A stretch of 64,000 nucleotides of DNA from NCBI GenBank assembly GCA_041743715.1, contig JBGTMH010000059.1, positions 1,608 to 65,607 of the forward strand, written 5' to 3'. This DNA comes from Patescibacteria group bacterium. GTDB lineage: Bacteria; Patescibacteriota; Microgenomatia; Levybacterales; UBA12049. Below the pieces are notes generated by a model, which was given only the letters and a program-made list of their open reading frames with translations, was not told the DNA's origin and did not search any database. This document shows positions 34,421-55,050 of the stretch, in pieces (positions within the stretch are counted from its first letter, which is position 1; each line of letters begins with the position of its first letter). The position numbers and the translations under genes were made by a program.

Positions 34421-34457
34421 ATAGGGTAGGGGTCAGTATTATGTTTGAACTTATTAT
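34421..34457 (+). repeat. Intergenic repeat family, copy g
   Basis: ATAGGGTAGGGGTCAGTATTATGTTTGAACTTATTAT, compared with the consensus AGCAGGGGCTGAGCAACTATGTTGGAACTTATTAT. Confidence 0.6.
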
Positions 34458-34780
34458 AGTAACTCAAACCAAATAATTTTTACAAGAGTTTGAGAAGTTA
34501 CTTCTTTTTTGTAGTATTTTGTATAAGTCTTATATATCTGTTCGATAGTCACAAAGTGTTCATGTCCTTTTTTATCTTCATCCGTTAGTTTTCCAAATGG
34601 CTTTTCTATAACTTTGGTGAGCTTTCCAGTCGCAAAATGTGTTGCGGTTCTATACTCGATAAAATCGACACTATCTCCAACAACTAAATCTTTATCATCC
34701 CACAGTCGCCATGTAGATATTTTTTCGTGGGAAAGGATAAGTGGTACTAACTCTTGAGCAAATTTTATTTTTTTATTCAT
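34454..34780 (-). CDS. ASCH-domain protein (PUA-like fold)
   Basis: FAQELVPLILSHEKISTWRLWDDKDLVVGDSVDF is a typical ASCH N-terminal block. The start is set at ATG 34780, with TGATATAAT 8 nt upstream. Confidence 0.7.
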   Translation of the reverse strand: MNKKIKFAQELVPLILSHEKISTWRLWDDKDLVVGDSVDFIEYRTATHFATGKLTKVIEKPFGKLTDEDKKGHEHFVTIEQIYKTYTKYYKKEVTSQTLVKIIWFELL

Positions 34781-34807
34781 CAATTGGAATTATATCAGAG
34801 TCCGATT

Positions 34808-34838
34808 CTCCCTCGATTGCTTAGTTTGAAGTATTATT
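34808..34838 (+). repeat. Intergenic repeat family, copy h (diverged)
   Basis: CTCCCTCGATTGCTTAGTTTGAAGTATTATT. Confidence 0.45.
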
Positions 34839-36336
34839 GAGAATTTTCTAAAAGCATTTTTGCTTGTTCGTAATTTATAACCCAACTGGTGTGGAGGATG
34901 CTTCGATAGAAGAGTGTTTGGTATAAATTGCCTTGTTTGTCATAGAGTTCTGGATACCCGCCGTTCTTTTCTATATTAGTTCTATAAGCTGAAAGATGTG
35001 TGCTTGCCAACTTTTTATACTGTGGTTGATCTACGGATAAGAGAATGAGGGCTTTAATATACTCAATACCCCAGTGACTCCAAATAGTTTCTCCCGTGTA
35101 GGAGGTAGCAAACGTTTTCACCGGTGTATAAAGTTTGTCCACGTGATCGGTTTTTGCATAAAAGAGTGGGAAAGGCTCTGATAATCCGTTTGCTTCGACA
35201 TACGTTATCATTTTTTGGAGTTTTCTTTTGTCTTCATCGTTACTTACTGTAAAAAATCCGCTGCCGAGGACGATAAATGAGTCACCTGAGAAGATTTTAG
35301 AATCACGTGATTCAGTAGAGAGATCATCGAGAAAAATACCTGACTTCTCATCCCAAAAGGTTTTTGTAATATTATTTTTCCATGCAACAAAATCACATGT
35401 GTCATCCAAAGTGTAAAGAGACGGACAAGTAACTGCAATATCCAAATCCCGGGCAAATTTTATTGTAGACCAGAGAATCACATTGTCATAAAAAGATGAT
35501 TCTCTTTTTATACCGTCTCTTGCGCTCGAGAGCGTAATGTCTTTTTTTATAAATCCTGTTTTTTGATCTATTGCTGCTTGGTGGTAATCGTTAATAGCTT
35601 TTTGTAAAGAAGACGTATGCTCTTTGAGGAGTTCATCCGCTGCTTTTTGTGTCTTGAGTGGATATTTTTGCGGTGTTTTAGCCGGGAACAAGGTGTGAAT
35701 AAATGAATCATCCTTGAGTGCAGAAAGAGCATAGAGTACGCCAAATAATGAATCTGAAGGGTCCGTGAATACATTGGCTGCTGAGTATGTCGTATGTATT
35801 ATTGGTATGAATGTTGTGTATTCTTTTTCGGTTTGTTTGAGTAGTTCAAGATTGAGCGCTAAGCCTTGAAGATAAATTTTTTGTCGATTCAACCAATCTT
35901 CCTCGGAGGTCCGTAGACGATTATCCATTACCGCGTTATAAAATATACCTAAATTACGGACATAAATATCTGCAAATTGGGCTCCCGAAATAATGTATGG
36001 CCGCTGCGGATTAAATCCTTTTTTGTGAATGGAAGTAATAATTTCATCCTCAGTGCCATTAAAAGGTCTTTCAGGGAAAAGTGCAAATAAAACAAGACGT
36101 GTGCCCTTATTTAATTCTGCAAATTTTTGGGCAAAAAGATTCTGGGTAAAGTGAACTGGGTACTGCTGTTGTAAGGTGATTGCACCTGTTTTATCAACAG
36201 ACGCATGAAATGGTTTCTCAATAACTGTTGGTGTCCCATATGGGTTAGTAATAGTTGCCAGGAGAAGGAGCATGCCGATGAGTGTGGCTAAAATGATAAG
36301 AGGGACAAAAATCTTTTTCAATTGTGCTCGCTGCAT
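34834..36336 (-). CDS. Hypothetical membrane-anchored protein, possibly an (alpha/alpha)6-barrel glycosidase-like fold
   Basis: N-terminal TM helix. The C-terminal GGYPELYD...SILHTSWVINYEQA resembles the ends of six-hairpin glycosidases. The assignment is weak. Confidence 0.45.
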   Translation of the reverse strand: MQRAQLKKIFVPLIILATLIGMLLLLATITNPYGTPTVIEKPFHASVDKTGAITLQQQYPVHFTQNLFAQKFAELNKGTRLVLFALFPERPFNGTEDEIITSIHKKGFNPQRPYIISGAQFADIYVRNLGIFYNAVMDNRLRTSEEDWLNRQKIYLQGLALNLELLKQTEKEYTTFIPIIHTTYSAANVFTDPSDSLFGVLYALSALKDDSFIHTLFPAKTPQKYPLKTQKAADELLKEHTSSLQKAINDYHQAAIDQKTGFIKKDITLSSARDGIKRESSFYDNVILWSTIKFARDLDIAVTCPSLYTLDDTCDFVAWKNNITKTFWDEKSGIFLDDLSTESRDSKIFSGDSFIVLGSGFFTVSNDEDKRKLQKMITYVEANGLSEPFPLFYAKTDHVDKLYTPVKTFATSYTGETIWSHWGIEYIKALILLSVDQPQYKKLASTHLSAYRTNIEKNGGYPELYDKQGNLYQTLFYRSILHTSWVINYEQAKMLLENSQ

Positions 36337-36556
36337 TGTAGGTAATGCAAGTAGTTTAACATAAAAGAATCTGAAAATGATTGGAAAATTGCGTAGAGGT
36401 TATGTATCTTTAAAGTCCAGCTATGCTACGACTAGTGGAACAACAGTCGTTGTTCGTATAACCGCAACGCAGATATATATGGTAAAATGGCCTTCTTACA
36501 TATTTGGAGCTTCGTTCTTACTATTACAAGATACTTTTCTTAGAGAATACATAGGT

Positions 36557-38722
36557 ATGAAAACATTTATGAATCACTATACAGGAGTCCTTATTCTTAT
36601 TGCAGTTTTAGTTGCGATACTGCTCGTTACCTCTCCAAAGATTACGCAGGCGAAATACTCAGATGATGTCGCAAGCAAAGAGACAATAGTTAATAAAAAT
36701 AAGAAAGGCGTCGTGCTCATTGACCGCAACGGAAAGAGTTTTTTTTCATTTTACGATGGGAAAGACAAAGTCTATACACCTCTTTCTGCTATTTCTCCTC
36801 ATGTACAGAATGCTGTGATAGTCGCTGAGGATGAAAAATTTTACCAGCACAATGGTGTTTCCTTCAATGCAATTTTTGGTGCTCTGATTGCAAATTTTAG
36901 AAAAGGTGATATTGCATTTGGTGGTTCAACGATTACTCAGCAATTGGTTAAGAACACGCTTCTTGACTCAAAAAGGAATATGTTTCGTAAATACGAAGAA
37001 TTTGTCTTGGCTCGAGAGATTGAAAAGCGTTTTAGTAAAAAGGAGATTCTTGAGATGTATCTTAATTCTGTATATTTTGGAGAAGGATCTTATGGGATTG
37101 AAGAGGCCGCATCGAGATATTTTGGCAAACGTGCAGTCGATTTAGATATAAGTGAAGCAAGTATGCTCGCTGGGATAATTGCAGCTCCATCAAATCTTTC
37201 TCCAATCACTGGTGACACCACAAAGGCAAAATCGAGGCAACAAAATGTGCTTGAGGAAATGGTCGAGGATAAATATATTACCCAAGACCAAAAACAAGCT
37301 GCACAAAAAGATCTGTCTTATACCAATGGAAGAAAACAAGAAGCTTTCCAAGCACCACATTTTGCTCTTCTGGTGAAGGAACAACTCATCAAACAATATG
37401 GAGAAGACAATCTGGCACAATCAGGTATGAAAGTACATACGACACTTGACCTGACAGCACAATCACATACTGAGCATGCAGTCGGGGAACAGGTACAAAA
37501 ACTAGCAGGTAATAATGGGACAAATGCCAGTGTCGTTGTCATGGATCCCAAAACAGGGGAGGTACTAACATTGGTAGGCAGTGCAGACTGGCATAATGAA
37601 CGATTTGGCAAAGTAAATATGGCTGTAGCACCAAGGCAGCCAGGATCTGCATTTAAACCAGTTGTCTTTCTTGCAGGATTTGAAAAGCAAATGGTAACTC
37701 CGGCAAGTATTTTGATGGATGCGCCGAGGAAATTTGAAAATAACTACAAGCCGAAGAATTATGATGAAAAATTCCGTGGTCCAGTCTCCGCACGATATGC
37801 GCTTGCAAATTCCTTAAATGTCCCGTCAGTTGAACTCATGACAAAAGTTGGTACTGAGAACACGCTTGAGATGGCAAAACGCATGGGTATTACGACATTA
37901 AAATCATCATCGGATTATGGTCCCTCACTCGTCTTAGGTACCGGTGAAGTGCCTCTGCTTGAGTTAACAAATGCATACGCAACACTTGCCAATCAAGGTG
38001 AAAAACATAATCCAAAGTTCGTCTCTTCAATTGAAGATAAATATGGAAAAGTAATTTATAAGGAGCAATCAGTTGGTGAAGAAGCTGTAGATCCAAAATA
38101 TGTTTTTCTTATTTCCTCAATTCTTTCCGATAGGAAAATTCGTAGCGATGTTTTTGGTCGAGAACTTGATATTTCGAGGCCTGCTGCTGTTAAGACCGGG
38201 ACAACGGAATATTACAAAGATGCATGGACAGTTGGCTATACCCCAAATCTTACTGTTGGTGTATGGGTAGGTAATAATAATAATGCGTCCATGGATAAGA
38301 TTGCAGGATCACTGGGTGCTGCACCAATTTGGAAAAATGTCATGGAGAAGCTATCAGCTGGAACACCAGTCGAAGAATTCTCCGCACCATCAGGAGTAAT
38401 TGCACATGCCGTTTGTGCTAACTATGGAAAAAGGTCGTATAGAGGTAACTCAGTCAATACTGAATACTTTGCAGAAGGAACGGAACCCAAAGGATGTATC
38501 CCATCTAGTGGAGCAAATTTTGGATTGGGAGAAGACCTTGATAAATTCTTAGCATCGCTACTTGATAAAGAAGACTATGAACAGGGGCAAGACAGTATAG
38601 GTAGAAGTAGCCAACAAGAAATAAATTTACGAAGACAAAGAATTGAATTCTTTTTTCCTCAACGAGATACGGAGAAAGATGGAGAACGTCGTAATGGAAG
38701 AGGTAGGGGGAGAGAGGATTAA
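36557..38722 (+). CDS. Class A penicillin-binding protein (PBP1A-type transglycosylase/transpeptidase)
   Basis: GT51 motifs are EDEKFYQHNGV, GGSTITQQLVKN and RKYEEFVLAREIE. Transpeptidase motifs are GSAFKP (SxxK), SLN (SxN) and KTGT. I prefer the start at ATG 36557 (MKTFMNHYTGVLILIAVL). Confidence 0.9.
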   Translation: MKTFMNHYTGVLILIAVLVAILLVTSPKITQAKYSDDVASKETIVNKNKKGVVLIDRNGKSFFSFYDGKDKVYTPLSAISPHVQNAVIVAEDEKFYQHNGVSFNAIFGALIANFRKGDIAFGGSTITQQLVKNTLLDSKRNMFRKYEEFVLAREIEKRFSKKEILEMYLNSVYFGEGSYGIEEAASRYFGKRAVDLDISEASMLAGIIAAPSNLSPITGDTTKAKSRQQNVLEEMVEDKYITQDQKQAAQKDLSYTNGRKQEAFQAPHFALLVKEQLIKQYGEDNLAQSGMKVHTTLDLTAQSHTEHAVGEQVQKLAGNNGTNASVVVMDPKTGEVLTLVGSADWHNERFGKVNMAVAPRQPGSAFKPVVFLAGFEKQMVTPASILMDAPRKFENNYKPKNYDEKFRGPVSARYALANSLNVPSVELMTKVGTENTLEMAKRMGITTLKSSSDYGPSLVLGTGEVPLLELTNAYATLANQGEKHNPKFVSSIEDKYGKVIYKEQSVGEEAVDPKYVFLISSILSDRKIRSDVFGRELDISRPAAVKTGTTEYYKDAWTVGYTPNLTVGVWVGNNNNASMDKIAGSLGAAPIWKNVMEKLSAGTPVEEFSAPSGVIAHAVCANYGKRSYRGNSVNTEYFAEGTEPKGCIPSSGANFGLGEDLDKFLASLLDKEDYEQGQDSIGRSSQQEINLRRQRIEFFFPQRDTEKDGERRNGRGRGRED

Positions 38723-38769
38723 TAATTTAGCAGCCCTTATTTTATTATGTGGTTTGTTATAATTCAGTA

Positions 38770-39564
38770 GTGGCTGACCTATTTGTCCTCAAGCTTATTG
38801 TATCCTTTCTTGTTGGAGGTTCGTATACACTCGTTTCAACTGTTGCAGCTGATAAGCTTGGGTCGAAGATTGGTGGGTTAATAAGTGGATTGCCATCAAC
38901 CGTACTCTTTGGATTATTATTTATTGGTTGGACACAAACTCCAGAGGCCAGTGTTGAAGCGACCACACTGATCCCAGCTGTTATCGGTCTTGCGTGTCTT
39001 TTTTTAATCACCTATATCTATTTTGTAAAACAAAACGTTTGGCTTGCTCTTTTTGCAGCATTTGGTGTATGGAGTATCTCAGCATATGGCTTACTAGCGA
39101 TTCGTCTCACTGATTTTTTCGTGTCTATTATACTATTTTTTGTCTTATATTTTGTTGCGTATGTCTTTGTAACGCGTATCTTTACCATCACATCATCGAA
39201 AGGAAACAAGATAATGTATTCTTCAAGAATACTGTTAGTGAGGGGACTTATTAGTGGGTCTATTGTAGCTCTATCGGTTATCTTGGCAAAAGTAGAGGGA
39301 CCGGTACTTGGAGGTATGGTTTCAACGTTTCCGGCAATGCTCAGTAGTACGCTTCTTATTACTTATTTTGCTCACGGTCACGCATTCTCATCAGCCGTTG
39401 CTAAAAGTACATTATTTGCTTGGGTGAGTACACTCATTTTTGTGATTGTCGCGAGATACACATATCTGCCATTTGGAATTGTATTTGGAACAATCATTGC
39501 TTTAGTAGCTTGCTATATAAGTGCCTATCTCCTCTACACATATATCATAAAAAAACACGCCTAA
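38770..39564 (+). CDS. Integral membrane protein (about 8 TM, internal duplication)
   Basis: Hydrophobic throughout. The start is set at GTG 38770 because TGTTATAAT (38758-38763) ends 6 nt upstream. Confidence 0.55.
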   Translation: MADLFVLKLIVSFLVGGSYTLVSTVAADKLGSKIGGLISGLPSTVLFGLLFIGWTQTPEASVEATTLIPAVIGLACLFLITYIYFVKQNVWLALFAAFGVWSISAYGLLAIRLTDFFVSIILFFVLYFVAYVFVTRIFTITSSKGNKIMYSSRILLVRGLISGSIVALSVILAKVEGPVLGGMVSTFPAMLSSTLLITYFAHGHAFSSAVAKSTLFAWVSTLIFVIVARYTYLPFGIVFGTIIALVACYISAYLLYTYIIKKHA

Positions 39565-39587
39565 ATTACAGTTATTGAAGGATGCGT

Positions 39588-40076
39588 TTATGAAGCAGCA
39601 GCGCTTGCATCATCGATATGTTTTATCTGGTATAAGCCGAGTACAACTAACAAGTCACGGTTTGTATTGTTAAACTTTCCGTCTGTTACTTCAATTTCGC
39701 CATTCATTTTCAGAAATCCACCTGTTCTATAACGAATAAGTTCTTTGCCGTTTTTATCAAGCCATGAATAGTGTGATTTCCACCAACTTGTACTTTTAAA
39801 GGCATACTGTTCGTTCTCATGAAATTTTATTGTTCCTCCATTACTGAAGGCACCAGAATAAAAAGTGGCCACAATTTTGTTTGATTTACTATCTTTAATC
39901 AAGACTTTTGTATGAAACAATCCTTTTTGTTCAAACTCCCATTTTTTCTCTCCAGCTTCAACTGTTGCTAGAGAACGGATAAATCCTCTACAAGTTAACC
40001 GAGCAACTAGTTTATCGTTTTTGCAAACTTCATACGTGCTCGATAGAGCTTTTGGTTGTTTAATTAAAAGTTTCAT
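39588..40076 (-). CDS. Hypothetical protein
   Basis: Clean 162-codon ORF with no motif recognised. Confidence 0.5.
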   Translation of the reverse strand: MKLLIKQPKALSSTYEVCKNDKLVARLTCRGFIRSLATVEAGEKKWEFEQKGLFHTKVLIKDSKSNKIVATFYSGAFSNGGTIKFHENEQYAFKSTSWWKSHYSWLDKNGKELIRYRTGGFLKMNGEIEVTDGKFNNTNRDLLVVLGLYQIKHIDDASAAAS

Positions 40077-40130: not shown

Positions 40131-40163
40131 GGCTGGGCTTGAGTAACTTTGTTGGAACGTATT
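40131..40163 (+). repeat. Intergenic repeat family, copy a
   Basis: GGCTGGGCTTGAGTAACTTTGTTGGAACGTATT. Confidence 0.6.
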
Positions 40164-40166
40164 TTG

Positions 40167-40784
40167 CTACTGTGTCAATTGAATTGAAGAAAGAACAGCG
40201 TTGATAGCTTCTTTATATTGGTCTTCGTACTTTGCGAGTGGAGAGGTTATGGTTATTGTCCAGAGGTCAGTTCCATGCTGAACGACATATGTATGCAAGT
40301 ACCCATCATAATCGCTGTAATAAGAAATAGCTGGAAGGCCGGCAACTGTTGTTATTGTAAGATCTCGGCTAATTACGCCAAGGGGATTCGCTATATCGTC
40401 GTTTACATTCTGATAGACTTCATCGAGCGCGTCTTGGCTTTGGTTGGATTTTACTTCAAATGTTATTATAACAGCATTTGTTTCCGGTCCACCTGAAGTG
40501 CCAGGTACAAGATCGGGTGAGAGTAACTGATACTCTCCTGAATCCGCTTTTTCTGTCCACCCAGAAGGCATTTGCAGTTGCACTAAGTCTTTAATAGGAG
40601 CTTGTGGAACAGTTTGAGATTCCTTTACATTTGTCGGGGATGTCTGCTGTACTTGTTGGACATTTGGTTGCGATTGTTGATTCTTTACTGTATATATGCC
40701 AAATAAAGCAAGCCCTACTATAACAACTACTCCAATAATAAAAACCGGTGTATTAGATTTTTTCGACTGTTTAGCTTCTTCCAT
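40167..40784 (-). CDS. Hypothetical membrane-anchored exported protein
   Basis: N-terminal TM helix (PVFIIGVVVIVGLALFGIY) followed by a Q-rich linker. Confidence 0.55.
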   Translation of the reverse strand: MEEAKQSKKSNTPVFIIGVVVIVGLALFGIYTVKNQQSQPNVQQVQQTSPTNVKESQTVPQAPIKDLVQLQMPSGWTEKADSGEYQLLSPDLVPGTSGGPETNAVIITFEVKSNQSQDALDEVYQNVNDDIANPLGVISRDLTITTVAGLPAISYYSDYDGYLHTYVVQHGTDLWTITITSPLAKYEDQYKEAINAVLSSIQLTQ

Positions 40785-40874
40785 AGCTCATTTAGTATTT
40801 CAAAGAATGGATAGCAAGTCAACTCTGAATCAGAATCCCTTTAGAGGTGAGTATAGTTTGATATGGTTCAGCGA

Positions 40875-40910
40875 GGCTAGGGGTTGAGTAATTATGTTGG
40901 TATGTATTAT
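40875..40910 (+). repeat. Intergenic repeat family, copy b
   Basis: GGCTAGGGGTTGAGTAATTATGTTGGTATGTATTAT. Confidence 0.6.
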
Positions 40911-40952
40911 TTTATTACATAGAGAATCCATGAGATGTTTTATTATAGATTC

Positions 40953-41534
40953 ATGAACAATCAAGAACTTTTTATTAAAGCTAATCAAGCACTTGCAGAT
41001 GTGATTCGTCAAATAAAGGACGAACAATTAGATATGAATATTCCAGAGAATATGGGATGGCGGTCCAAGCAGACGGTTCGCGCTGTTATGAATGGTCTCG
41101 CGTATGAAAATGCATGTGTACCGGATGTTCTTGCGGGTCGGGAAAAGCAGCAGAGCAATGATGAGTTTGATGGAGATTTGCTCGGAGACGATCCGCAGGA
41201 GAATTATAAAAAATTAAGTGATGCAGCAAATAAAGCTGCGAAAGATTTGGATGATCCTGAGCGCATTGTGCATATTTCGTATGGTGATTTTCCCGCGAAG
41301 GATTATCTGCATGACATTATTATTCAAAGAGGATTAAGCGCATACGATATTGCAAAGTTTATCGGTGCTGATACGAAATTGCCTGATGATCTTGTACAGG
41401 GACTTTGGGAGTTTGTTGTACCCGCTGCAGAATATCTGCGAAGTATAGGAGTATTTAAAGCAAAAGTTGAAGTGCCTGAAAACGAGTCTCTTCAAAACCG
41501 TCTGCTTGGATTAACCGGACGAAATCCCCACTAG
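40953..41534 (+). CDS. DinB/mycothiol-maleylpyruvate-isomerase-N-like protein (TIGR03086-like, actinobacterial flavour)
   Basis: The C-terminal ...LQNRLLGLTGRNP resembles the family-typical ...LLAFLGRDP ending. The N-terminal helix bundle is DinB-like. The start is set at ATG 40953, with TATTAT 6 nt upstream. Confidence 0.5.
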   Translation: MNNQELFIKANQALADVIRQIKDEQLDMNIPENMGWRSKQTVRAVMNGLAYENACVPDVLAGREKQQSNDEFDGDLLGDDPQENYKKLSDAANKAAKDLDDPERIVHISYGDFPAKDYLHDIIIQRGLSAYDIAKFIGADTKLPDDLVQGLWEFVVPAAEYLRSIGVFKAKVEVPENESLQNRLLGLTGRNPH

Positions 41535-41564
41535 GGGCCAAAATGGATTTGTTGGAACGTATTA
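41531..41564 (+). repeat. Intergenic repeat family, copy c (left half diverged)
   Basis: CTAGGGGCCAAAATGGATTTGTTGGAACGTATTA. It overlaps the TAG stop of the upstream gene. Confidence 0.5.
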
Positions 41565-41589
41565 CTTTCAAAATTCTTAGACACTAAGA

Positions 41590-42150: not shown

Positions 42151-42180
42151 TATTCAATTATATCAAAGACCCGAGCCTGT

Positions 42181-42216
42181 TTGGCAGGGGCTAAGCAACT
42201 CTGTTGGAACCTAATT
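42181..42216 (+). repeat. Intergenic repeat family, copy d
   Basis: TTGGCAGGGGCTAAGCAACTCTGTTGGAACCTAATT. Confidence 0.65.
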
Positions 42217-42225
42217 CTATAAAAA

Positions 42226-42837: not shown

Positions 42838-42898
42838 GTATTGCAATTATAACAGGTTCGAATCTGTACACGGGTGTATAAAATTTCAGGCTAAAGTC

Positions 42899-43532: not shown

Positions 43533-43550
43533 ATACATCAATCTGTATCC

Positions 43551-46596: not shown

Positions 46597-46629
46597 ATTA
46601 TCTTTTCATTATCTTTTCATTATCTTTGT
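46597..46629. repeat. 11-bp tandem repeat x3 (ATTATCTTTTC, ATTATCTTTTC, ATTATCTTTGT) at the 3' end of a CDS
   Basis: Read directly from the sequence. The unit length is not a multiple of 3. Confidence 0.9.
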
Positions 46630-46969: not shown

Positions 46970-46973
46970 ATCA

Positions 46974-47504: not shown

Positions 47505-47507
47505 ATT

Positions 47508-48341
47508 TTACAATCGGCCTGCCCATTGATAAATGGTACCCAGATCTACGTTTTTACTCGGAATCCAAATGCAGTCATCGTTTTTCAGGTTTGGCGCCAT
47601 AAAATCAAAAACATTTTGAGATACGAAGACTCCGCTACCATAATCAGCTAACTTGGATGCTCTATTCATTGCGACTCCTGTCCAGACAAGGTCATTATTA
47701 TCAGCCCCTGTTTGACCAACTTTACCAACAAACATTTGTCCATAATCTACTCCAATGCCAAAATCGAAAGAATAACCTATCGTGTTTTCGATAAGCGGAT
47801 TTATAGAATTTTGGAGCACATCTTCCATCATTTGTGCAGTTTCGACCGCGATTGATCTCTGACGCTCTTCATGTAAGTCGAAAACAACACCAATACGATC
47901 TCCAGCAAAAGTTCGTATCCTGCCTTTCCTATAACGGGCTACTGCGACAAGTGCAGCATGAAAAATTTTATATATTCGAAGTGCTGTTACTGCATCATGA
48001 TTTTCTAATATTTGTGAGGATTTTCGCATATCAACATGCAGAACAGAAGTCGTAATTATTTTAGCTTCGTTATTTGCCACCTCTGAGACTGCAGGAACTT
48101 TTCGTGCTTTAACCAGCTGCACATTCATATTCAATAAGCTTCGGGTTTGAGTTTGTATCCTGCTTATTAGCTCTGAGCGGTTTTTTGGAGGGAGTGGAAT
48201 AATCTTTAGCGGAACTCCTTTAGGCTTAGGAGGAAGAGGCGGTAATCCAAAAAAATCAATTAATGGCGACTTTGGCGCCGGAGGCAACTTCAGCCGTCCA
48301 TTGAGGACAAATTCCTTAAGTAAATCATTATTTCCTGCCAT
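47508..48341 (-). CDS. Class III nucleotidyl (adenylate/guanylate/pyrimidine) cyclase-domain protein
   Basis: VLHVDMRKSS (metal Asp 1), RTFAGDRIGVVF (metal Asp 2), FGIGVDYGQMFVGKVG and LVWTGVAMNRASKLADYG (the N-x-x-x-R-L-type block). The N-terminus is Pro-rich. Confidence 0.75.
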   Translation of the reverse strand: MAGNNDLLKEFVLNGRLKLPPAPKSPLIDFFGLPPLPPKPKGVPLKIIPLPPKNRSELISRIQTQTRSLLNMNVQLVKARKVPAVSEVANNEAKIITTSVLHVDMRKSSQILENHDAVTALRIYKIFHAALVAVARYRKGRIRTFAGDRIGVVFDLHEERQRSIAVETAQMMEDVLQNSINPLIENTIGYSFDFGIGVDYGQMFVGKVGQTGADNNDLVWTGVAMNRASKLADYGSGVFVSQNVFDFMAPNLKNDDCIWIPSKNVDLGTIYQWAGRL

Positions 48342-48434
48342 ATCATCTCCATCTTATTTGCTAAATACTATCATACGTTTTTGTCGGATGCAAACTTATT
48401 TGAAGCAAGATATATGAGATAATACTTTCACATA

Positions 48435-48950
48435 ATGGATATAAATAAAGTTGCGCAGAAATTGAAAAATTTGGTGGAAAATGATGAATTTATTAACGAG
48501 ATGCACGTTGGATATCCTCAAGTTTCTCTAAAAGGTAGGCCTTCCGTAATGACAAAAAGTGTGGTCGGAAAACTACGTACTGCTTTTCTGATGGGATGTA
48601 GTGATAGAGAAGCTTGTGCTTACGCACAAATTAATAAAGATACATTGTATGATTTCCAGAAGAAGAATCCGGAATTTTCCGACCAGAAGGAGCTTTGGAA
48701 GCAAAATCCGATTCTGAAGGCAAGAATTACTGTATTTAAATCTCTTAATCAACCAAAAATAGCTATGTGGTATCTTGAGAGAAAAAAGCCGGAAGAGTTC
48801 TCTCTCCGGTATCATACTTCTCAGTCGTCTACACAATTAACGATTCAATATGTAATTCCAAAAACCAATTATGAAGACATGGCTAAGAAAGCTGAAGAAG
48901 CGTTGAATTTGCAGGAGAGTGAGGGGAAAATGCTTGGTAATTTAAATTAA
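48435..48950 (+). CDS. Phage-type HTH protein (terminase small-subunit-like)
   Basis: GRPSVMTKSVVGKLRTAFLMGCSDREACAYAQINKDTLYDF...WYLERKKPEEF resembles TerS-type HTH proteins. Assigned from memory, not verified. Confidence 0.4.
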   Translation: MDINKVAQKLKNLVENDEFINEMHVGYPQVSLKGRPSVMTKSVVGKLRTAFLMGCSDREACAYAQINKDTLYDFQKKNPEFSDQKELWKQNPILKARITVFKSLNQPKIAMWYLERKKPEEFSLRYHTSQSSTQLTIQYVIPKTNYEDMAKKAEEALNLQESEGKMLGNLN

Positions 48951-49183
48951 AAATTAAAGAGATCCTTTACTTGAACGTGAAGTCCACGTGATAGCTTTAT
49001 CAAATACCTCACAGTTGTATTAACGTAGCCATTTTCAATTTTCGCCAGATACGACACATTAATATGTGCTTTATCAGCTAAATCTTCTTGAGTCATGTTG
49101 GCTTTCTCTCTCAATACCCTAATCGTTTCACCTAGCAACTTGCGTTCTCTCTGAAATGGATTGTCTTCGGAATATCCTCGCAT
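48947..49183 (-). CDS. XRE-family HTH transcriptional regulator
   Basis: LREKANMTQEDLADKAHINVSYLAKIENGYVNTTVRYLIKLSRGL. Confidence 0.85.
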   Translation of the reverse strand: MRGYSEDNPFQRERKLLGETIRVLREKANMTQEDLADKAHINVSYLAKIENGYVNTTVRYLIKLSRGLHVQVKDLFNF

Positions 49184-49218
49184 GAGGTAATTATTCGAGA
49201 AGTAGCACTATATTACCA

Positions 49219-49247
49219 TTCCATATATGGAAACTTTCTGATATAAT
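49219..49247 (+). promoter_or_regulatory. 14-bp perfect palindrome TTCCATATATGGAA (operator candidate) plus a TATAAT box 7 nt before ATG 49255
   Basis: Palindrome at 49219-49232 and TATAAT at 49242-49247. They lie in the XRE-divergent intergenic region. Confidence 0.5.
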
Positions 49248-49254
49248 CTCATCA

Positions 49255-49827
49255 ATGAATAGTTCGAAAAAATGGTATCAAAAATCATTCGGTATTATTG
49301 CGCTGCTAATTCTTTTCTTTCCTGCAGGGTTATTTTTGATGTGGAAATACGCGAATTGGAACAAGTACATCAAAATAGGTATTACAGCCGTATTTGCGCT
49401 ATTCCTGCTTACTGGAGCAATTACAGATGATAACAAGGAGCAAGGCACTGCTACTCCAGCAGATACAACAGTCAACAAACCGGAAGAAAGACCAACCGAG
49501 AAGCCGAAACCGACTGAATCAGCTCAGCATGAGTTAAAAGCAGATATAAAGTTCAGTGAGGATGCATATCTGATAACAAATGAGGACGGAAAAGTTTGGA
49601 TTGATTGCAAGCTAGAAATGAATTCAGGAATCATAAGAGGTGGATATGTATACAATACAGAGCTTATAGACACGGACAAGCCAGTTATTATCCCTTTCAG
49701 AGAATTTACTAAAGGTGATGGAACTCGATTCAACTCAGATGCCACAAAGCCACAAAGTCTATCTATTTCTTGCGCTGATGTAGGAGGTTCTGGAAAACGT
49801 GGCTTTGGATACTTTGGAGCAAACTAA
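49255..49827 (+). CDS. Membrane-anchored hypothetical protein
   Basis: Two N-terminal TM helices followed by a soluble domain. Confidence 0.55.
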   Translation: MNSSKKWYQKSFGIIALLILFFPAGLFLMWKYANWNKYIKIGITAVFALFLLTGAITDDNKEQGTATPADTTVNKPEERPTEKPKPTESAQHELKADIKFSEDAYLITNEDGKVWIDCKLEMNSGIIRGGYVYNTELIDTDKPVIIPFREFTKGDGTRFNSDATKPQSLSISCADVGGSGKRGFGYFGAN

Positions 49828-49912
49828 CCTCTTTACTACTCATATTACAAGTTCTTGATTTTAACTCTTGCATGATCGATAGGGGCGAGAGTATATTCAT
49901 CAATATATTGAG

Positions 49913-50359
49913 ATGAATATGGCTAATCTAATTAATGAATTCCAAACTGCTGTTTTGGGTATAAAGAATATAATTGAAGAAGTTAAGAATACTGATTTGT
50001 CTAAAGCTATCGGTTCTCCGGATGAGCAAATACTTGCGATACTAAATAAACCATCTCAGCATAAAGCCACAAGCTTCAAACAGATACCCGTTAGACGAGA
50101 ATTAATTACAACTATGTTGACACATAATTATTTCTCTAAAAAACAAGTTAAATTGCTTAAAGCCCTTATTAATAAACCGCTTAGCAAAATTGATATTAAA
50201 GTAAAAATTGGAAGCAAGAATGTACCAAGTTTGGTACGTGATACAAATAAGCGATTAAAAAAATATGGATTACACTTGCAGGTCAAAATTGAGTCATGTA
50301 GGGTCAACAAAATGAAAGGTTTCTACAAGCTTTTAATTTCTCCAATTCCTTTTAGCTAA
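49913..50359 (+). CDS. Hypothetical protein (basic, possibly DNA-binding)
   Basis: Clean ORF with no motif recognised. Confidence 0.45.
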   Translation: MNMANLINEFQTAVLGIKNIIEEVKNTDLSKAIGSPDEQILAILNKPSQHKATSFKQIPVRRELITTMLTHNYFSKKQVKLLKALINKPLSKIDIKVKIGSKNVPSLVRDTNKRLKKYGLHLQVKIESCRVNKMKGFYKLLISPIPFS

Positions 50360-50504
50360 TTTTCATAATTCTAGCTTTAAAAACGCATATTCCCTTAAAA
50401 GTTCCTTATAATCCTATTTTCATCTGAATTCATTTTCGCATTTTGCGTTTTTGAAATCGCATATTATTTATTTCAAAATAACATCACTATAAAAATTAGT
50501 AGTT

Positions 50505-50675
50505 ATGGAAATTGAGATTAATAATCAAACAATACAGAAGTTACGCTCCACGTTTTCTCCTCAACTTAAAAGGGCATTATCACAGCCGGAAGTCAAAGAA
50601 ATTTATCTTAATCTCAAGGGTTTCGCTCAAACACTTCTCAAGATGAAAATGGAGGCAGCAAAGAATGAGAAATGA
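50505..50675 (+). CDS. Small ORF (56 aa), below the ORF-track cutoff
   Basis: ATG at 50505, giving MEIEINNQTIQKLRSTFSPQLKRALSQPEVKEIYLNLKGFAQTLLKMKMEAAKNEK. It overlaps the next start (50665). Confidence 0.3.
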   Translation: MEIEINNQTIQKLRSTFSPQLKRALSQPEVKEIYLNLKGFAQTLLKMKMEAAKNEK

Positions 50676-50901
50676 TACTTATAAAACCAGCTTATACTCT
50701 GCAGCATGTATTTACATGTATGGTATTAAGCTTATAAATGTTGAGCGTGATGGATATTCCTACATTTATACTTTTGAAAACAAAAAACTTTGTGAAGTCA
50801 TAGTAAGTAAATTTAACGAGCAAAGCTTAAATGGAAATATTACAGACTTTGTGAGTGCAATTCTAGATCTTGAGATAGAAGTAATGGAAAGGAATATATA
50901 A
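50665..50901 (+). CDS. DUF5659-like small protein
   Basis: TSLYSAACIYMYGIKLINVERDGYSYIYTFEN, paralogous to the next gene. Confidence 0.55.
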   Translation: MRNDTYKTSLYSAACIYMYGIKLINVERDGYSYIYTFENKKLCEVIVSKFNEQSLNGNITDFVSAILDLEIEVMERNI

Positions 50902-50902
50902 C

Positions 50903-51142
50903 ATGAACCTCGACAATGAATGTTTCGTAAAAGATATCTATGCAGCTTCATTTCTCCTAGTGTCCGGAAAGAGATTATTAAGGTTACAAAAAGAAAATAG
51001 CTACTATTGGTTCGTATTTGAAGGAAAGAATGAATCTGAGGAGCTGCTTAATGTTTATTGGCAAGGAGATGGAGCAGTAAAACCACGAATATATGCTGAT
51101 GCTTGTAGGACGTTGAAGGATCGAGTTTTTGCACAAAGGTAA
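50903..51142 (+). CDS. DUF5659-like small protein
   Basis: KDIYAASFLLVSGKRLLRLQKENSYYWFVFEGK...ACRTLKDRVF. Confidence 0.6.
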   Translation: MNLDNECFVKDIYAASFLLVSGKRLLRLQKENSYYWFVFEGKNESEELLNVYWQGDGAVKPRIYADACRTLKDRVFAQR

Positions 51143-51156
51143 AAGATGGAAAATAG

Positions 51157-51531
51157 ATGGATAAAAAGTCTCACTTATTTTTACAACTTTGGCATACAGC
51201 CATAAGAGAAGGTGTATTGGCAACGCTAGGTGCAACAAATCTTCATACTCTTATCGGATTAGCCTATTTTATGAATGAACAAGGTGAATGTTATCCCTCT
51301 GAATCTCGTCTTATGTCACTTCTAGGACTGAGTGACGTCTCTTCAGTAAGCGACAGAATCACTAAATTAAGGAAAGCTCAATGGAATAATAAACCTGTTA
51401 TTCAGGTAAAAACGGGAGAAAGAACTAAAGATAAAAGTGGAAAATATAAATGGGGAAATAATTATTACAAGCTTAATATGGAGATTATCAGTATCTTTTC
51501 GGGATGGCAAAATAACCAAACGGAAACTTGA
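51157..51531 (+). CDS. HTH_36-like helix-turn-helix protein (replication/regulation of mobile elements)
   Basis: LIGLAYFMNEQGECYPSESRLMSLLGLSDVSSVSDRITKLRK. Confidence 0.55.
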   Translation: MDKKSHLFLQLWHTAIREGVLATLGATNLHTLIGLAYFMNEQGECYPSESRLMSLLGLSDVSSVSDRITKLRKAQWNNKPVIQVKTGERTKDKSGKYKWGNNYYKLNMEIISIFSGWQNNQTET

Positions 51532-51688
51532 AGCTAATGCATGGCGTGTTTCCGATACGGAAAAAGACCAAGTAAACAATACTCAGATTATTAACGATAC
51601 TTTCAAATATACGATTTCAATTAAGAAAGAGTTCGAAAATGGTTATTGAAACTTCGAACCTCATTCTTTATGATGGTTTGAGATTTAG

Positions 51689-53197
51689 ATGAATATGAAA
51701 GCTGCATTATATGCTCGGGTAAGTTCCCGAGAACAAAAAGAAGGCTATTCCCTAGAGGCTCAGATTAAGCTAGGAAGAGAATATTCTGAGAAACAAGGAA
51801 TAGAGTTAGTAAGAGAATTTGCGGTTGCTGAAAGTGCGAAGAAAAGCGGAAGAGAACAATTTGAGCAAATGATTACCTTCTTGCGAGATAATCCAGATAT
51901 AAAAGTTATTATCTGTGAGAAAGTTGATCGACTACTTAGGGGTGATCTTAAAGATCGAGTAGCACTCGATGATCTTCTCAGAGAGAACGATAAAGAAATT
52001 CACTTCATAAAAGAGAATATTATCTTGAGCAAAGACTCAAAATCCTTTCAAAAGCTATATTATGGAATCCAAGCAGAGTTTGCTCGATTTTATCTGAATA
52101 ATCTTTCAGACGAGGTTAGGAAGTCTTACGAAATAATGGTTGATGATGGTAAATATCCACATCCGCCTCCAGTTGGCTATAAAGCGAAGCTTGAAAATCA
52201 CCTCTCTGTAGCAGATCCGGATAGAGCAGGTTTTATACCCAAAGCATTTCAATTAGCTTCTACTGGTAACTATAGTGAGAAAGCAATAAGTGACCTTTTA
52301 TATAAGGAAGGCTTCAGAAGTCGGACTGGTAAGCAAGTCGGAAAATCTGATATTGGAGGCATCTTGCATAACCCTTTCTACTATGGTGATTTTAGGTGGA
52401 AGGGAGAACTAAAAAAAGGAATTCATCAACCGCTGATACCTAAAAGTCTATTTGATAGAGTGCAAGAAGTGCTTTCTCCTCGAGGAAAGAATAAAGGAGT
52501 TAAACATCGATTTACTTATGCTGGCGGACTATTAACGTGTGGTTATTGTGGTAATGGGATCACAGCAGAAACTCAGAAGGGACACGTATATTATCGTTGT
52601 ACAAAGCCTAAGGGTGCAAAGAACTGTCCTCAAAAATATATTCGGGAAGAAACAATAGAAGAGCAATTAAGAGCCATAGTGAAAGCGATTAGTCTCAATT
52701 CGGAAACAGTAAATCTTATTAAGGACATACTGCACCAAAGCCATGATGAGGAGCAGGAATACCATAAGCAATCTCTTGAGGCTCTACAAAGCCGGTACAG
52801 TGCCATTAAAGCAAAGTTAGATAAACTTCTTAATGTGTACATTGACGAAGGTATTAGTAAGGAGATTTATACAGATAAATCACAAGAACTTGAGAAGGAA
52901 AGAAATGAAATTAATAGTCAGATTAACAGACATAAGAATGCGGATAAAGAGTATTTTGAGCAGGTAGAAAATTTTCTAGAAGTAGCATATCAAGCTCCGG
53001 CTTTATACAAGGGTTCGAGTACAGCATTAAAGAGAGAGTTTCTCAGGTTTATCGTCTCGAACCTCATTTTGAAGGATAAAAATGTCATTCCTAGCTTCAG
53101 ATTACCCTTTAGTTTACTAGTAGAGTATAAAGAAAATGAAAACTGGCAGGGGTGCACGGACTCGAACCGTGAAAAGCAGTTTTGGAGACTGCTGTGA
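51689..53197 (+). CDS. Large serine recombinase (resolvase domain + recombinase domain + zinc ribbon + coiled coil)
   Basis: AALYARVSSREQKEGYSLEAQ holds the catalytic Ser. The zinc ribbon is LLTCGYCGNGITAE...YYRCTKPKGAKNCPQ. The last 54 nt are antisense to tRNA-Trp. Confidence 0.9.
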   Translation: MNMKAALYARVSSREQKEGYSLEAQIKLGREYSEKQGIELVREFAVAESAKKSGREQFEQMITFLRDNPDIKVIICEKVDRLLRGDLKDRVALDDLLRENDKEIHFIKENIILSKDSKSFQKLYYGIQAEFARFYLNNLSDEVRKSYEIMVDDGKYPHPPPVGYKAKLENHLSVADPDRAGFIPKAFQLASTGNYSEKAISDLLYKEGFRSRTGKQVGKSDIGGILHNPFYYGDFRWKGELKKGIHQPLIPKSLFDRVQEVLSPRGKNKGVKHRFTYAGGLLTCGYCGNGITAETQKGHVYYRCTKPKGAKNCPQKYIREETIEEQLRAIVKAISLNSETVNLIKDILHQSHDEEQEYHKQSLEALQSRYSAIKAKLDKLLNVYIDEGISKEIYTDKSQELEKERNEINSQINRHKNADKEYFEQVENFLEVAYQAPALYKGSSTALKREFLRFIVSNLILKDKNVIPSFRLPFSLLVEYKENENWQGCTDSNREKQFWRLL

Positions 53198-53218
53198 TAA
53201 CCATTTCACCACACCCCT
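53144..53218 (-). tRNA. tRNA-Trp (anticodon CCA), CCA end encoded
   Basis: Folded by hand: acceptor AGGGGTG/CACCCCT, D stem GTGA/TCAC, anticodon stem GCAGT/ACTGC with loop CTCCAAA, T arm CACGG-TTCGAGT-CCGTG. Confidence 0.9.
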
Positions 53219-53788: not shown

Positions 53789-53816
53789 CTTCACTCTACT
53801 GGGAACACAAAGGGGA

Positions 53817-53993
53817 TTATTTGAGCTTATCGTTTTCTTTATGGTCTGTAACTTTTCTACAATGTTTACAGAATTTTTTTAACACCAATTTCTCAGGAGT
53901 TTCCATTTTATTTTTCTGCGTGATGTAATTTCTGTTTTTACAGATCTGACACACAAGTCCGATTTTGATACGATGTTCGCCCTTTTTTGCCAT
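53817..53993 (-). CDS. rpmG: 50S ribosomal protein L33
   Basis: Not in the ORF track (58 aa). Product is MAKKGEHRIKIGLVCQICKNRNYITQKNKMETPEKLVLKKFCKHCRKVTDHKENDKLK, with the CxxC...CxxC and RNY signature of L33. Confidence 0.9.
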   Translation of the reverse strand: MAKKGEHRIKIGLVCQICKNRNYITQKNKMETPEKLVLKKFCKHCRKVTDHKENDKLK

Positions 53994-54035
53994 ACGAGTA
54001 ATTATACACTATTTGAGGCAGGAATAAAATAGTAG

Positions 54036-54107
54036 AGCCGGCTATGGGAATTGAACCCATGATCTAGTCATTACCAATGACTTGCTCTACCACTGAGCCA
54101 AGCCGGC
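54036..54107 (-). tRNA. tRNA-Thr (anticodon GGT)
   Basis: Acceptor GCCGGCT/AGCCGGC, anticodon stem AGTCA/TGACT with loop TTGGTAA, T arm ATGGG-TTCAATT-CCCAT. Confidence 0.9.
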
Positions 54108-54216
54108 GATGTTATAAACGATTTGACTATTTTACCATTTTTTTCATAAGGCTGCTAGCAATAGTCTTTGGGGTTGCTCAAGCTCGCTGCGTTTGCTAAA
54201 ATCGAATATACTTATT

Positions 54217-54288
54217 GCCGACATAGCTCAGTGGTAGAGCAATGCTTTTGTAAAGCATGGGTCGGGGGTTCAAATCCCTCTGTCGGCT
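54217..54288 (+). tRNA. tRNA-Thr (anticodon TGT)
   Basis: Acceptor GCCGACA/TGTCGGC, anticodon stem ATGCT/AGCAT with loop TTTGTAA, T arm GGGGG-TTCAAAT-CCCTC. Confidence 0.9.
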
Positions 54289-54306
54289 CAAGTTAGTTAT
54301 AATAAA

Positions 54307-54393
54307 AGCTGGATTGGCGGAGTAGTCAATCGCACCTCGCTGTAGACGAGGCGGCCTTCGGCCTACGGGAGTGCAAATCTCTCATCCAGCACC
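54307..54393 (+). tRNA. tRNA-Tyr (anticodon GTA), class II with long variable arm, CCA encoded
   Basis: Acceptor GCTGGAT/ATCCAGC, anticodon stem CCTCG/CGAGG with loop CTGTAGA, variable arm GGCC-TTCG-GGCC. The T loop reads TGCAAAT, with G where the near-universal U55 is expected. Confidence 0.8.
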
Positions 54394-54403
54394 AATCAAC
54401 TTT

Positions 54404-54952
54404 TTATTCACTCTCTTTAAAGAAGTCATCTTTTTGTAATTCCATCAGGTAGCTCAGATCTTCTTCTTGCGGAATTTGTATCGTTCTTTTATACCTAAAA
54501 CCGGCCTTCTCATATGCTCTAATAGCCCGTTTATTCGTCGGTTCAGGATCGATTATGCAAAGTTGTATTGTTTTGTCCGCAAATACAATTTCTTTGAGAA
54601 ATTGTCTTATCATCAGTCTGCCAAAGCCTTTCCCTATATATTCAGGATTGCCGATGAATAGATCAATACCAGCAACACCTTCATTATATCCAGTAGCATC
54701 ACGGAATTCCGGCCAGTCCCGGGTTTTATACCATTGAATGTAACCGACAGGATTATTGTTGTACCATGCGATAAAACCGTCAGTCGGTTCGTTAATTTCT
54801 TTAAATGAATAGCGTTTGGTAACTTCAGCTAGGGTATTTTTTTCATTTTTATCGTACCATTCATGCACATGCGTTTCATTGAGCCATGTGGTTAGTAAGG
54901 AAAAATCCTGGGGCCGCAACGGTTTAAACGAAAGATGATCTGTATAAAACAT
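54404..54952 (-). CDS. GNAT-family N-acetyltransferase (Acetyltransf_8 / aminoglycoside 6'-N-acetyltransferase-like)
   Basis: LTTWLNETHVHEWY, IDLFIGNPEYIGKGFGRLMIRQFL and NKRAIRAYEKAGF. Confidence 0.8.
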   Translation of the reverse strand: MFYTDHLSFKPLRPQDFSLLTTWLNETHVHEWYDKNEKNTLAEVTKRYSFKEINEPTDGFIAWYNNNPVGYIQWYKTRDWPEFRDATGYNEGVAGIDLFIGNPEYIGKGFGRLMIRQFLKEIVFADKTIQLCIIDPEPTNKRAIRAYEKAGFRYKRTIQIPQEEDLSYLMELQKDDFFKESE

Positions 54953-55016
54953 ACATTTATTGTACCACCGAAGAGATTAAATATTATAGAAGTTAGACAA
55001 CTATCAATTACCTGCT

Positions 55017-55050
55017 ATTGCACAGGTTTGAGTGCTTTGTTGAAATGAGA
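55017..55050 (+). repeat. Intergenic repeat family, copy i (diverged)
   Basis: ATTGCACAGGTTTGAGTGCTTTGTTGAAATGAGA. Confidence 0.4.

Follow-up and report, generated by a model that had tools for sequence, protein, structure and literature searches.

In a 64-kb stretch of DNA from a Patescibacteria group bacterium (64,000 nucleotides of contig JBGTMH010000059.1; called the window below, always meaning the whole stretch), a run of accessory genes beside a tRNA-Trp gene is punctuated by a ~35-bp intergenic element. We consider it likely that this element is made up of a conserved half-site, here called the P arm, and the crossover core of an attachment (att) site whose partner is the 3′ end of tRNA-Trp, and that the array of genes was built by serial integration of the type carried out by large serine recombinases (LSRs).

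The element and its anchoring at tRNA-Trp

We detected six strong copies of the repeat within 40131–43587, all on the + strand, although the genes of the region lie on both strands (six on −, three on +). There are six intergenic gaps between 40077 and 43626, and each holds one copy and no more. A repeat-family search placed five of the six in one family (D3), and the exact consensus occurs once in the window against an expectation of zero. A hidden Markov model (HMM) trained on the window copies and run with nhmmer over the 64 kb recovered all six at E = 1e-9 to 1.5e-5, the next match after the copies standing at E = 3.5. A second, independent HMM, built from 51 non-redundant copies that all come from other genomes, found five of the six at E ≤ 7e-4 (43552 at E = 1e-12, then 42181, 40140 and 42900, and 41548 at E = 7e-4) and the sixth, at 40879, at E = 0.12. 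The repeat-family search and the two HMMs thus uphold the original prediction, made from the sequence alone, of a co-oriented repeat with one copy per gap at 40.1–43.6 kb.

That prediction had listed eleven copies, of which the six strong ones stand together with a diverged, solitary seventh at 34425. The latter has about 28 of 36 positions in common with the copy at 43553 and reaches E = 6e-4 with the window-trained (circular) HMM; the independent HMM matches its right end only (E = 31). The other four do not hold. Three of them (34808–34838, 55017–55050 and 8561–8592) gave no match or E ≥ 94 with the two element HMMs, and 45341–45374, proposed as a degenerate copy and missed by both HMMs as a canonical one, is instead the left att site of a serine-recombinase island, with a GGCAGGG core and a different, apparently related arm. 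By eye, 34808 is perhaps a relic of a right half. The copies are confined to one part of the window: seven lie within 9.2 kb, six of these within 3.5 kb, and none elsewhere in the 64 kb.

Outside the window, a degenerate core pattern identified 10 loci in species-representative genomes and 35 in metagenome contigs, and the element motif had no match in viral contigs. With nhmmer we counted 95 copies in 46 sources, comprising genomes of Patescibacteria (the candidate phyla radiation, CPR) and metagenomes, with a single strand per source throughout. Named hosts are Candidatus Levyibacteriota, Saccharimonadales and other Patescibacteria metagenome-assembled genomes (MAGs), and most array-bearing loci are 1–13 kb long. 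The conserved block measures 35 nt and is sharp-edged, with information content at background directly left of GCAGGGG and directly right of TATTWT; most of its positions are 90–100% conserved across Levyibacteriota, Saccharimonadales and other CPR MAGs, and its flanks are unconstrained. Elements follow one another at a median distance of 801 bp, and in 32 of 49 intervals there is just one open reading frame (ORF) of at least 80 aa. The products are diverse (PsbP-like proteins, alpha/beta hydrolases, GNAT, AHSA1, GIY-YIG, PIN, HAD, virginiamycin B lyase, MFS and S51 peptidase), and the recurrent cassette protein families include no recombinase. With one ORF in most intervals and such accessory cargo, the element bounds single-gene cassettes, as had been suggested.

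Some copies are interrupted. At L045 8505, L021 949, L028 932, L006 544 and L008 5550 (L numbers denote the compared loci), an insert of 15–45 nt, TCGAAGATCCTGAGGAATCGAAGGG-like and partly repetitive, separates GGGGCTGAG from CAAC. Four CPR-type arrays (L001, L002, L008 and L010) come from MAGs labelled Candidatus Sulfotelmatobacter or uncultured Gammaproteobacteria. Because the tRNA-Trp/Thr/Tyr cluster of L001, L002 and L008 is syntenic with that of the window, at 75–85% nucleotide identity, contigs so labelled are probably mis-binned or mislabelled CPR.

tRNA-Trp serves as the anchor of the arrays. In 12 independent loci (the window, L001, L002, L006, L008, L013, L014, L019, L022, L026, L042 and L045) the array lies 3′ of tRNA-Trp and the reverse complement of the element reads in the tRNA direction; the tRNA near elements is tRNA-Trp(cca) everywhere except in L004, where a tRNA-His lies about 2 kb from them. 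Read in the tRNA direction, the element runs from a stop codon or ATAATAG through GTTCCAAC, AAA and GTTGCTYAG to CCCCTGC-YR and a variable arm, or, in compact form, ATAATAG-GTTCCAACAAAGTTGCTYAG-CCCCTGC-YR-(variable). The tRNA-Trp gene ends in ...GGTTCGAGTCCGTGCA followed by CCCCTGC(CA), and this core, CCCCTGC, is common to the tRNA and every element. Only 7–9 nt of the element are tRNA-derived; the other ~26 nt form the P arm, which is strongly conserved and specific to the element. The idea that the repeats are decayed att scars of integration at tRNA-Trp thus stands as to the att site at the tRNA, with its CCCCTGC core in 12 loci, but not as to decay, the elements being no degraded tRNA copies.

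Beyond the core, the variable arm takes several recognizable forms. In L045, L013, L001 and L026 the CCCCTGC of the tRNA is directly followed by TGACGATTTTAGCCTCAAATCGTGCCTAAAAAAGCCTTACYCGCAACGGTAYGTTAGAAC (which begins TGACGATTTTAGCCTC), the same sequence that follows the core in 26 array elements and that we term the a-type arm. The b-type arm (TGCACAGACTCGAACC) repeats the tRNA T-arm in inverted orientation, and the c-type arm (TGCACACCGCAACGGTACGTTAGAACC) forms a 55-bp imperfect dyad with the P arm. Since tRNA and element share the core and the arm on one side, while the other side is tRNA body in the one and P arm in the other, they show the anatomy that repeated integration at the tRNA-proximal site should leave in attL-, attR- and attP-type junctions. 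By eye, the distal end of a- and c-type arms (for example L037 2347, L045 9065, L015 295 and L028 413) reads GAACYTCTG(A/G)TATAAT or CTCTATTATCAC on the strand of the next gene. It is possible that this end is an extended −10 promoter, in which case each cassette would be an independent expression unit.

Several other identities for the element were considered and rejected. ARAGORN finds no tRNA at elements, which speaks against the element as a tRNA 5′ end or D-arm with the b-type arm as its T-arm; the T-arm-like sequences are more readily understood as tRNA half-sites copied in inverted orientation. A hammerhead-like three-way junction lacks the core motifs and any Rfam match, a Xer/dif-like site has only an eyeball resemblance (TATGTT) and no dyad of dif spacing, and dispersed repeats of the REP (repetitive extragenic palindrome) or MITE (miniature inverted-repeat transposable element) type do not fit units that do not fold, keep one orientation per source and cluster so tightly in the window.

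The position of the element relative to genes could also suggest an intergenic expression signal, a terminator, promoter or small RNA unrelated to recombination. Among 77 cases the gene on the TATTAT side is antisense in 55, with its stop codon 0–30 nt away, so that the element comes just after a stop codon, and sense in 22, with its start 25–50 nt away; in addition, the distal ends of a- and c-type arms carry, by eye, the TGnTATAAT-like sequence facing the next gene. We found no stable hairpin, however, and an Rfam scan of the element came back empty both at the gathering score and at E ≤ 10. Promoter-like and terminator-like sites are neither enriched nor coincident with element copies, orientation is fixed whatever the strand of the gene, the window copies are confined to one locus next to tRNA-Trp, and the core is common to element and tRNA. 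An explanation by expression alone is very improbable on this evidence, and the earlier argument against a simple promoter or terminator role is supported.

Single-gene cassettes with diverse accessory cargo are also the mark of an integron or a CALIN (cluster of attC sites lacking an integrase), in which attC sites are recombined as folded single strands by the tyrosine recombinase IntI. In 29 of 92 copies the conserved arm and an adjoining a- or c-type arm form an imperfect inverted repeat with two paired boxes (GGTTCYAAC/GTTGGAACC and GTTGC/GCAAC) and an unpaired spacer, like the R and L boxes of attC, at −20 to −30 kcal/mol as single strands. Most copies, however, lack an inverted partner: few have an upstream GTTCNAAC partner, the a- or c-type arm supplies one only in those 29, and the arms of the inverted repeat come from two different cassettes. 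When the seven window copies were folded as single-stranded DNA, none was more stable than shuffled sequence (z −0.6 to +1.3), so that the suggested attC-like folding is not supported for the window; the CAAC-N3-GTTG dyad noted at the outset exists but is not conserved among copies, TGAATTGGTTG being a frequent variant. In addition, GTTGGAAC departs from the GTTRRRY consensus and the genes lie on both strands (55 antisense against 22 sense). The array is anchored at tRNA-Trp rather than at intI/attI, Pfam finds no tyrosine recombinase among 40 window ORFs, and the tyrosine-recombinase box II pattern is absent from the 46 sources in what was a crude pattern search of short loci. We thus looked for an attC fold, for intI with attI at the array end and for co-oriented cassettes, and found none of these features. 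An integron or CALIN is highly unlikely.

Turnover of cassettes between arrays

Between the closely related L043 and L045, identity reaches 99.6% over 5 kb past the array and 96% at the tRNA, yet the space in between is filled by three unrelated cassettes in each. The breakpoints fall directly after the tRNA CCCCTGCT and at the distal CTCAGCCCCT. Cassettes also recur in otherwise unrelated arrays at 82–98% identity (L012/L028, L008/L030, L008/L016/L021 and L045/L035/L037); for example, L012 8240–8751 and L028 419–930 are 89% identical, and L008 5894–6931 and L030 234–1271 are 87% identical. One cassette ranks second from the tRNA in L045 and fourth in L006. This replacement of a whole array between near-identical strains, together with the recurrence of cassettes across arrays, agrees with the proposal that the repeat-bounded units are accessory cassettes.

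The units might instead be dead relics, the remains of full-size islands after deletion, bounded by fossil att sites and changing only through homologous recombination of flanking DNA. LSR remnants do adjoin elements in L039 and perhaps also in L026 (most of the L026 match coincides with antisense tRNA-Trp), truncations or insertions affect several arms, and most loci lack an LSR. Fossils should decay, yet the 35-nt block is conserved across lineages between unconstrained flanks. The units are single genes in close succession, each with its stop codon directly at the arm, identical cassettes stand at different positions in different arrays, and near-identical strains differ in the entire array. 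We regard fossil sites as a distinctly unlikely explanation.

Serine recombinase islands at the same core

We found the full LSR domain set at the island edge beside the target in the window and in eight homologue loci; the cassettes themselves encode no recombinase. The window island is flanked by GGCAGGG repeats, one at 45341–45347 and one in the tRNA (within 53144–53152). The 32-nt stretch directly left of 45341 recurs without mismatch in L005, where it stands upstream of a canonical element, and the two loci diverge exactly after the core, where the window continues into the island and L005 into the canonical P arm. Because the left flank matches that of L005 up to this point, we conclude that the window island was inserted at the tRNA-proximal core of the array. 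Seven of the eight homologue loci, at 53–65% identity, have the LSR 3′ end overlapping tRNA-Trp (L046–L051 and L054), and in the eighth, L052, tRNA-Trp overlaps the 3′ end of the recombinase gene by coordinates.

The sister islands at tRNA-Trp carry SMODS/CBASS (cyclic-oligonucleotide-based antiphage signalling system) cyclases (L050 and L054), SLFN_AlbA_2 (L049 and L052), an OLD-like AAA/TOPRIM nuclease (L051), and a caspase with a trypsin (L046). The tRNA-Trp LSR islands look like a family of defence islands in CPR genomes.

At the far ends of four islands the core is followed by a conserved arm, CAGG-CATTAGTAnnCGAnC-TTCGAAC-nnTTTGGCA. Single-gene units with such arms occur beyond the LSR island in L049 (2–761, RibD_C) and L054 (1692–2304, HIT), each lying between two island-type arms of about 55 nt (CAGGCATTAGTAnnCGAnCTTCGAACnnTTTGGCA...). 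These lineages have one-cassette arrays without the canonical 35-bp element, and their units, bounded as they are, indicate that integrase-less single-gene cassettes with the island's own arm exist beside LSR islands. In L039, the core links a canonical cassette arm to the C-terminal remnant of an LSR. Units at this target thus range from single genes of 0.4–1.3 kb without a recombinase (cis-mobilizable cassettes) to islands of 8–9 kb, which have an LSR next to the tRNA and anti-phage cargo.

Arm geometry connects the two kinds of unit. Canonical arms and all four island arms alike have the motif TT(C/G)GAAC starting 19 nt past CAGG, whereas in the reverse complement of four tRNA-Trp genes the corresponding T-loop sequence NTCGAAC starts 14 nt after CAGG. 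In serine integrases, the motif bound by the zinc-ribbon domain occupies positions 16–24 of attP half-sites and 11–19 of attB half-sites, a 5-bp shift (PMC3783163). The same 5-bp offset, together with implied sites of ~40 bp (B-type) and 50–55 bp (P-type), fits the attP/attB half-site grammar of LSRs. The TTSGAAC motif would then be a protein contact, and the crossover dinucleotide would lie inside GCAGG. The GAAC that the element has in common with the T-arm, part of the loose resemblance to tRNA-Trp noted in the original prediction, is best interpreted as a recombinase-binding motif lying 5 bp farther out than its tRNA counterpart. Position and this motif at a fixed offset are all that suggests a relation between the island arm and the canonical arm.

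In the mechanism that we favour, a circular DNA with a P arm and core would recombine with the tRNA-proximal core. The insertion would land between the tRNA and the previous insert and regenerate the tRNA–core target, and repeated rounds would build a co-oriented tandem array in which every unit ends in P arm and core. Arrays would change by excision between cores, possibly blockwise with the island (accretion–mobilization), and cassettes would move singly or with the island as one excised block. An LSR of the window family would act on the cassettes in trans. As judged from sequence, an enzyme of this family is most likely the one that recombines the cassette sites, and circular cassette intermediates presumably exist. 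The combination of a strong tRNA side and a strong P arm with variable partners suggests that one strong half-site per partner (tRNA side, P arm) is enough. Such sufficiency of a single half-site would be unusual for phage integrases and would resemble Ccr-type enzymes. The neighbouring serine recombinase, named at the outset as the enzyme to test, remains a good candidate in that LSR islands use the same core and have the arm motif at the same offset.

Several observations weigh against serial integration by such an LSR. The second half-site is not conserved, 54 of 92 copies being without a recognizable a-, b- or c-type arm (several of the 54 resemble decayed a-type arms). Characterized serine integrases need both half-sites and, without a directionality factor, recombine only attP with attB (PMC3783163). 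Among array-bearing loci a full LSR occurs only in the window, which is weak evidence given the 1–13-kb length of most of them, and the LSR homologue locus L053 has no tRNA beside the recombinase. The arm of the window island is a different allele from the canonical arm, undetected by the element HMMs, and a search among nine LSR loci for an island with its own canonical arm found none. Neither circular junctions nor empty sites were observed in the compared loci. L018 is 1.1 kb longer than L037, and here the breakpoint falls within the P arm (after GGTTCCAACAAAGTT) and not at the core: the same two cassettes are adjacent in L037 (1480–1620) and 1.1 kb apart in L018 (860–2160), with a diverged arm at the other end, and the a-type 55-nt segment of the shared cassette is present in L037 and not in L018. 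This difference is not explained by a simple crossover at the core. Finally, the 34425 copy lies 5.7 kb from the array with a PBP1a gene in between.

Some of these points would also fit att sites at tRNA-Trp whose cassettes are moved by another, unlinked recombinase, such as a phage or plasmid tyrosine integrase, with LSR islands merely sharing a popular target. Tyrosine integrases classically target tRNA 3′ ends, no LSR turned up with a canonical arm, an LSR is missing from most array loci, and the second half-site is variable. The identity with the tRNA, however, amounts to just 7–9 nt, and tyrosine integrases at tRNA genes usually carry a longer tRNA-identical segment. TTSGAAC stands at the same offset in cassette and LSR-island arms, the L049 and L054 cassettes have exactly the island arm type, and the box II pattern reveals no tyrosine recombinase in ~400 kb of array-flanking sequence. 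We think an unlinked recombinase unlikely, and continue to favour an LSR of the window family.

Known systems, significance and neighbouring genes

The closest described system is that of the ssrA genomic islands (ssrA-GIs) of Dehalococcoides (McMurdie et al. 2011, PMC3146451). There, islands follow one another in tandem downstream of a single-copy RNA gene, and the 3′ end of this gene recurs as a short direct repeat at the boundaries of each island. Beside the repeat stands a conserved motif of other origin than the RNA gene, the island edge that faces this gene encodes a CcrB-like large serine recombinase, and units lacking an integration module are taken to be cis-mobilizable and to join by accretion (PMC3146451). 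All of these have counterparts here, where units are likewise bounded by a direct repeat of the 3′ end of a conserved single-copy gene (core CCCCTGC(YR), 12 loci), the feature of LSR accretion. In contrast to the ssrA-GIs, the target is tRNA-Trp and not transfer-messenger RNA (tmRNA), the system belongs to CPR bacteria, most units that lack an integrase consist of one gene, at a median element spacing of ~0.8 kb, a 26-nt conserved arm is common across phylum-level lineages, and there is a single LSR gene and not a DsiA/DsiB pair.

A second parallel is found in the staphylococcal cassette chromosome (SCC), where SCCmec and pseudo-SCC elements are inserted serially by the large serine recombinases CcrAB or CcrC at the 3′ end of the conserved gene rlmH (orfX), between short co-oriented repeats. 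The same repeats also enclose elements that lack ccr, and the chromosomal half-site on the gene side is the conserved one. SCC elements differ from the present units in being 3–60 kb and not single genes, in using a protein-coding gene and in occurring in Staphylococcaceae. In streptococci, integrase-less att-flanked segments (cis-mobilizable elements, CIMEs) persist at the same target beside an integrase element, in the setting of integrative and conjugative (ICEs) or integrative and mobilizable elements (IMEs), and are co-mobilizable; CIMEs use tyrosine integrases and consist of one or two large units, not of arrays of six or more gene-sized ones. The parallel between SCC and ssrA-GIs was drawn before, and the accretion concept and cis-mobilizable elements were discussed with it (PMC3146451).

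With integrons the system shares its outcome: a chromosomal platform stacks small, mostly single-gene, unrelated cassettes of strain-variable content, and every cassette ends in a conserved recombination site just past the stop codon. It differs in that no IntI or other tyrosine recombinase was found, the sites do not fold as attC hairpins, a tRNA gene serves as the platform, and the genes lie on both strands, many of them appearing to carry their own promoter. The array works like an integron without being one, and is a miniaturized variant of tandem island accretion. A full-text literature search returned no description of this system in CPR. It differs from the known systems in the host radiation, the tRNA-Trp target, the gene-sized cassettes (six in a row in the window) and the single 35-bp site conserved across phylum-level lineages.

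Taken further, the arrays could be a CPR analogue of the integron built on another enzyme class, in which a tRNA-Trp-specific LSR, usually from a defence island, captures and reshuffles promoter-bearing single-gene cassettes that need in cis only the 26-nt arm and the 7-nt core, and that form an accessory pool across phyla. We hold this to be a serious possibility, but stop short of favouring it. CPR bacteria have tiny genomes, and little is understood of the ways in which accessory genes enter these genomes and pass between them. If the analogy were true, very small genomes would have a shared, cross-phylum pool of mobile accessory genes, and the tRNA-Trp cassette system, which Levyibacteriota, Saccharimonadales and other lineages have in common, would provide the CPR with a general path for gene flux, linked to islands carrying Pycsar (pyrimidine cyclase system for antiphage resistance), CBASS-type cyclases, OLD-like nucleases and Schlafen-like proteins. 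The arrays would, moreover, have converged on the integron with a serine and not a tyrosine recombinase. In practice, the 35-bp arm is a simple probe to harvest cassettes from metagenomes, the recombinases are candidates for new serine-integrase tools with a defined natural target, and the arrays explain breaks of assemblies and bins in these regions.

Table 1. Coordinates of the element copies, cassettes, tRNA-Trp and LSR island in the window
Feature	Position	Strand	Remarks
Diverged solitary copy	34425-34457	+	abuts stop codon of ASCH gene (34454-34783, -)
Element copy 1 (conserved arm + core)	40131-40165	+	most distal copy of contiguous array; repeat-family search, both HMMs
PsbP_2-like cassette	40167-40784	-	Pfam
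Element copy 2	40876-40910	+	repeat-family search, window HMM; independent HMM E = 0.12
Unknown-gene cassette	40935-41534	+	
Element copy 3	41531-41565	+	left half diverged; both HMMs
Unknown-gene cassette	41590-42150	-	
Element copy 4	42183-42217	+	starts TGGCAGGGG, the reverse complement of the tRNA-Trp 3′ end; both HMMs
S51 peptidase cassette	42226-42846	-	Pfam
Element copy 5	42901-42935	+	a-type variable arm upstream at ~42840-42900; both HMMs
2H phosphoesterase cassette	42984-43532	+	Pfam
Element copy 6	43553-43587	+	matches consensus; nearest to tRNA; both HMMs
PRTase-CE, tRNA-nearest unit	43627-44499	+	Pfam
GIY-YIG genes (two), tRNA-nearest units	44519-44869 and 44937-45218	-	Pfam
Left att site of LSR island	45341-45375	+	core GGCAGGG (45341-45347), then island-type arm CTTGACCGAGAAACTTCGAACTTTATGG
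Integrated island, 7.8 kb	45348-53143		Pycsar system, two DUF5659 genes, HTH_36 gene, LSR
PycTM effector	46974-47504		in LSR island
Nucleotide cyclase (Pycsar)	47508-48341		weak Pfam Guanylate_cyc match, 20.1 bits against cut-off 21.9
LSR	51689-53197	+	Pfam Resolvase + Recombinase + Zn_ribbon_recom; 3′ end crosses att core into antisense tRNA-Trp
tRNA-Trp(cca)	53144-53218	-	3′ end 53144-53152 (TGGCAGGGG on + strand) is the shared crossover core, attB half-site

The stretch 40167–43532 comprises five single-gene cassettes, and in the tRNA-nearest units (43627–45218) no canonical element separates the PRTase-CE and GIY-YIG genes. Pfam supports the earlier gene calls of an S51 peptidase, a 2H phosphoesterase and a PRTase-like protein; a 'DinB-like' protein was not confirmed. 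GIY-YIG genes are the first gene after the core in several arrays (L005 1111–1341 and 2663–2965, L022 3178–3450 and L039 12–258) and form a tandem pair in the window. They may be ordinary, frequent cassettes, or else selfish or helper nucleases.

The 5.7 kb between the 34425 copy and the array (34454–40076) encode an ASCH protein, a 500-aa unknown protein, a class A penicillin-binding protein (PBP; 36377–38722), DUF3147 and a 162-aa protein; this stretch may be an old large insert, a rearrangement or the chromosome proper. On the other side of the island (53800–55300), the window has the tRNA-Tyr/tRNA-Thr(tgt) pair in inverted orientation when compared with L001, L006 and L043, and a GNAT acetyltransferase gene (54404–54952) is inserted between tRNA-Tyr and the conserved flank; the 55017 site lies at the border of this insertion and is not an element. 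Further away, 12177–12273 has a borderline tRNA-like Rfam match, its 29 bits equalling the threshold. At 8962–12206 there are two tandem subtilase (S8) paralogues, the first identified by a Pfam scan and the second inferred from repeats, with 300-nt blocks that are 68–73% identical (repeat families D1 and D2) and with GTNGG-rich short repeats.

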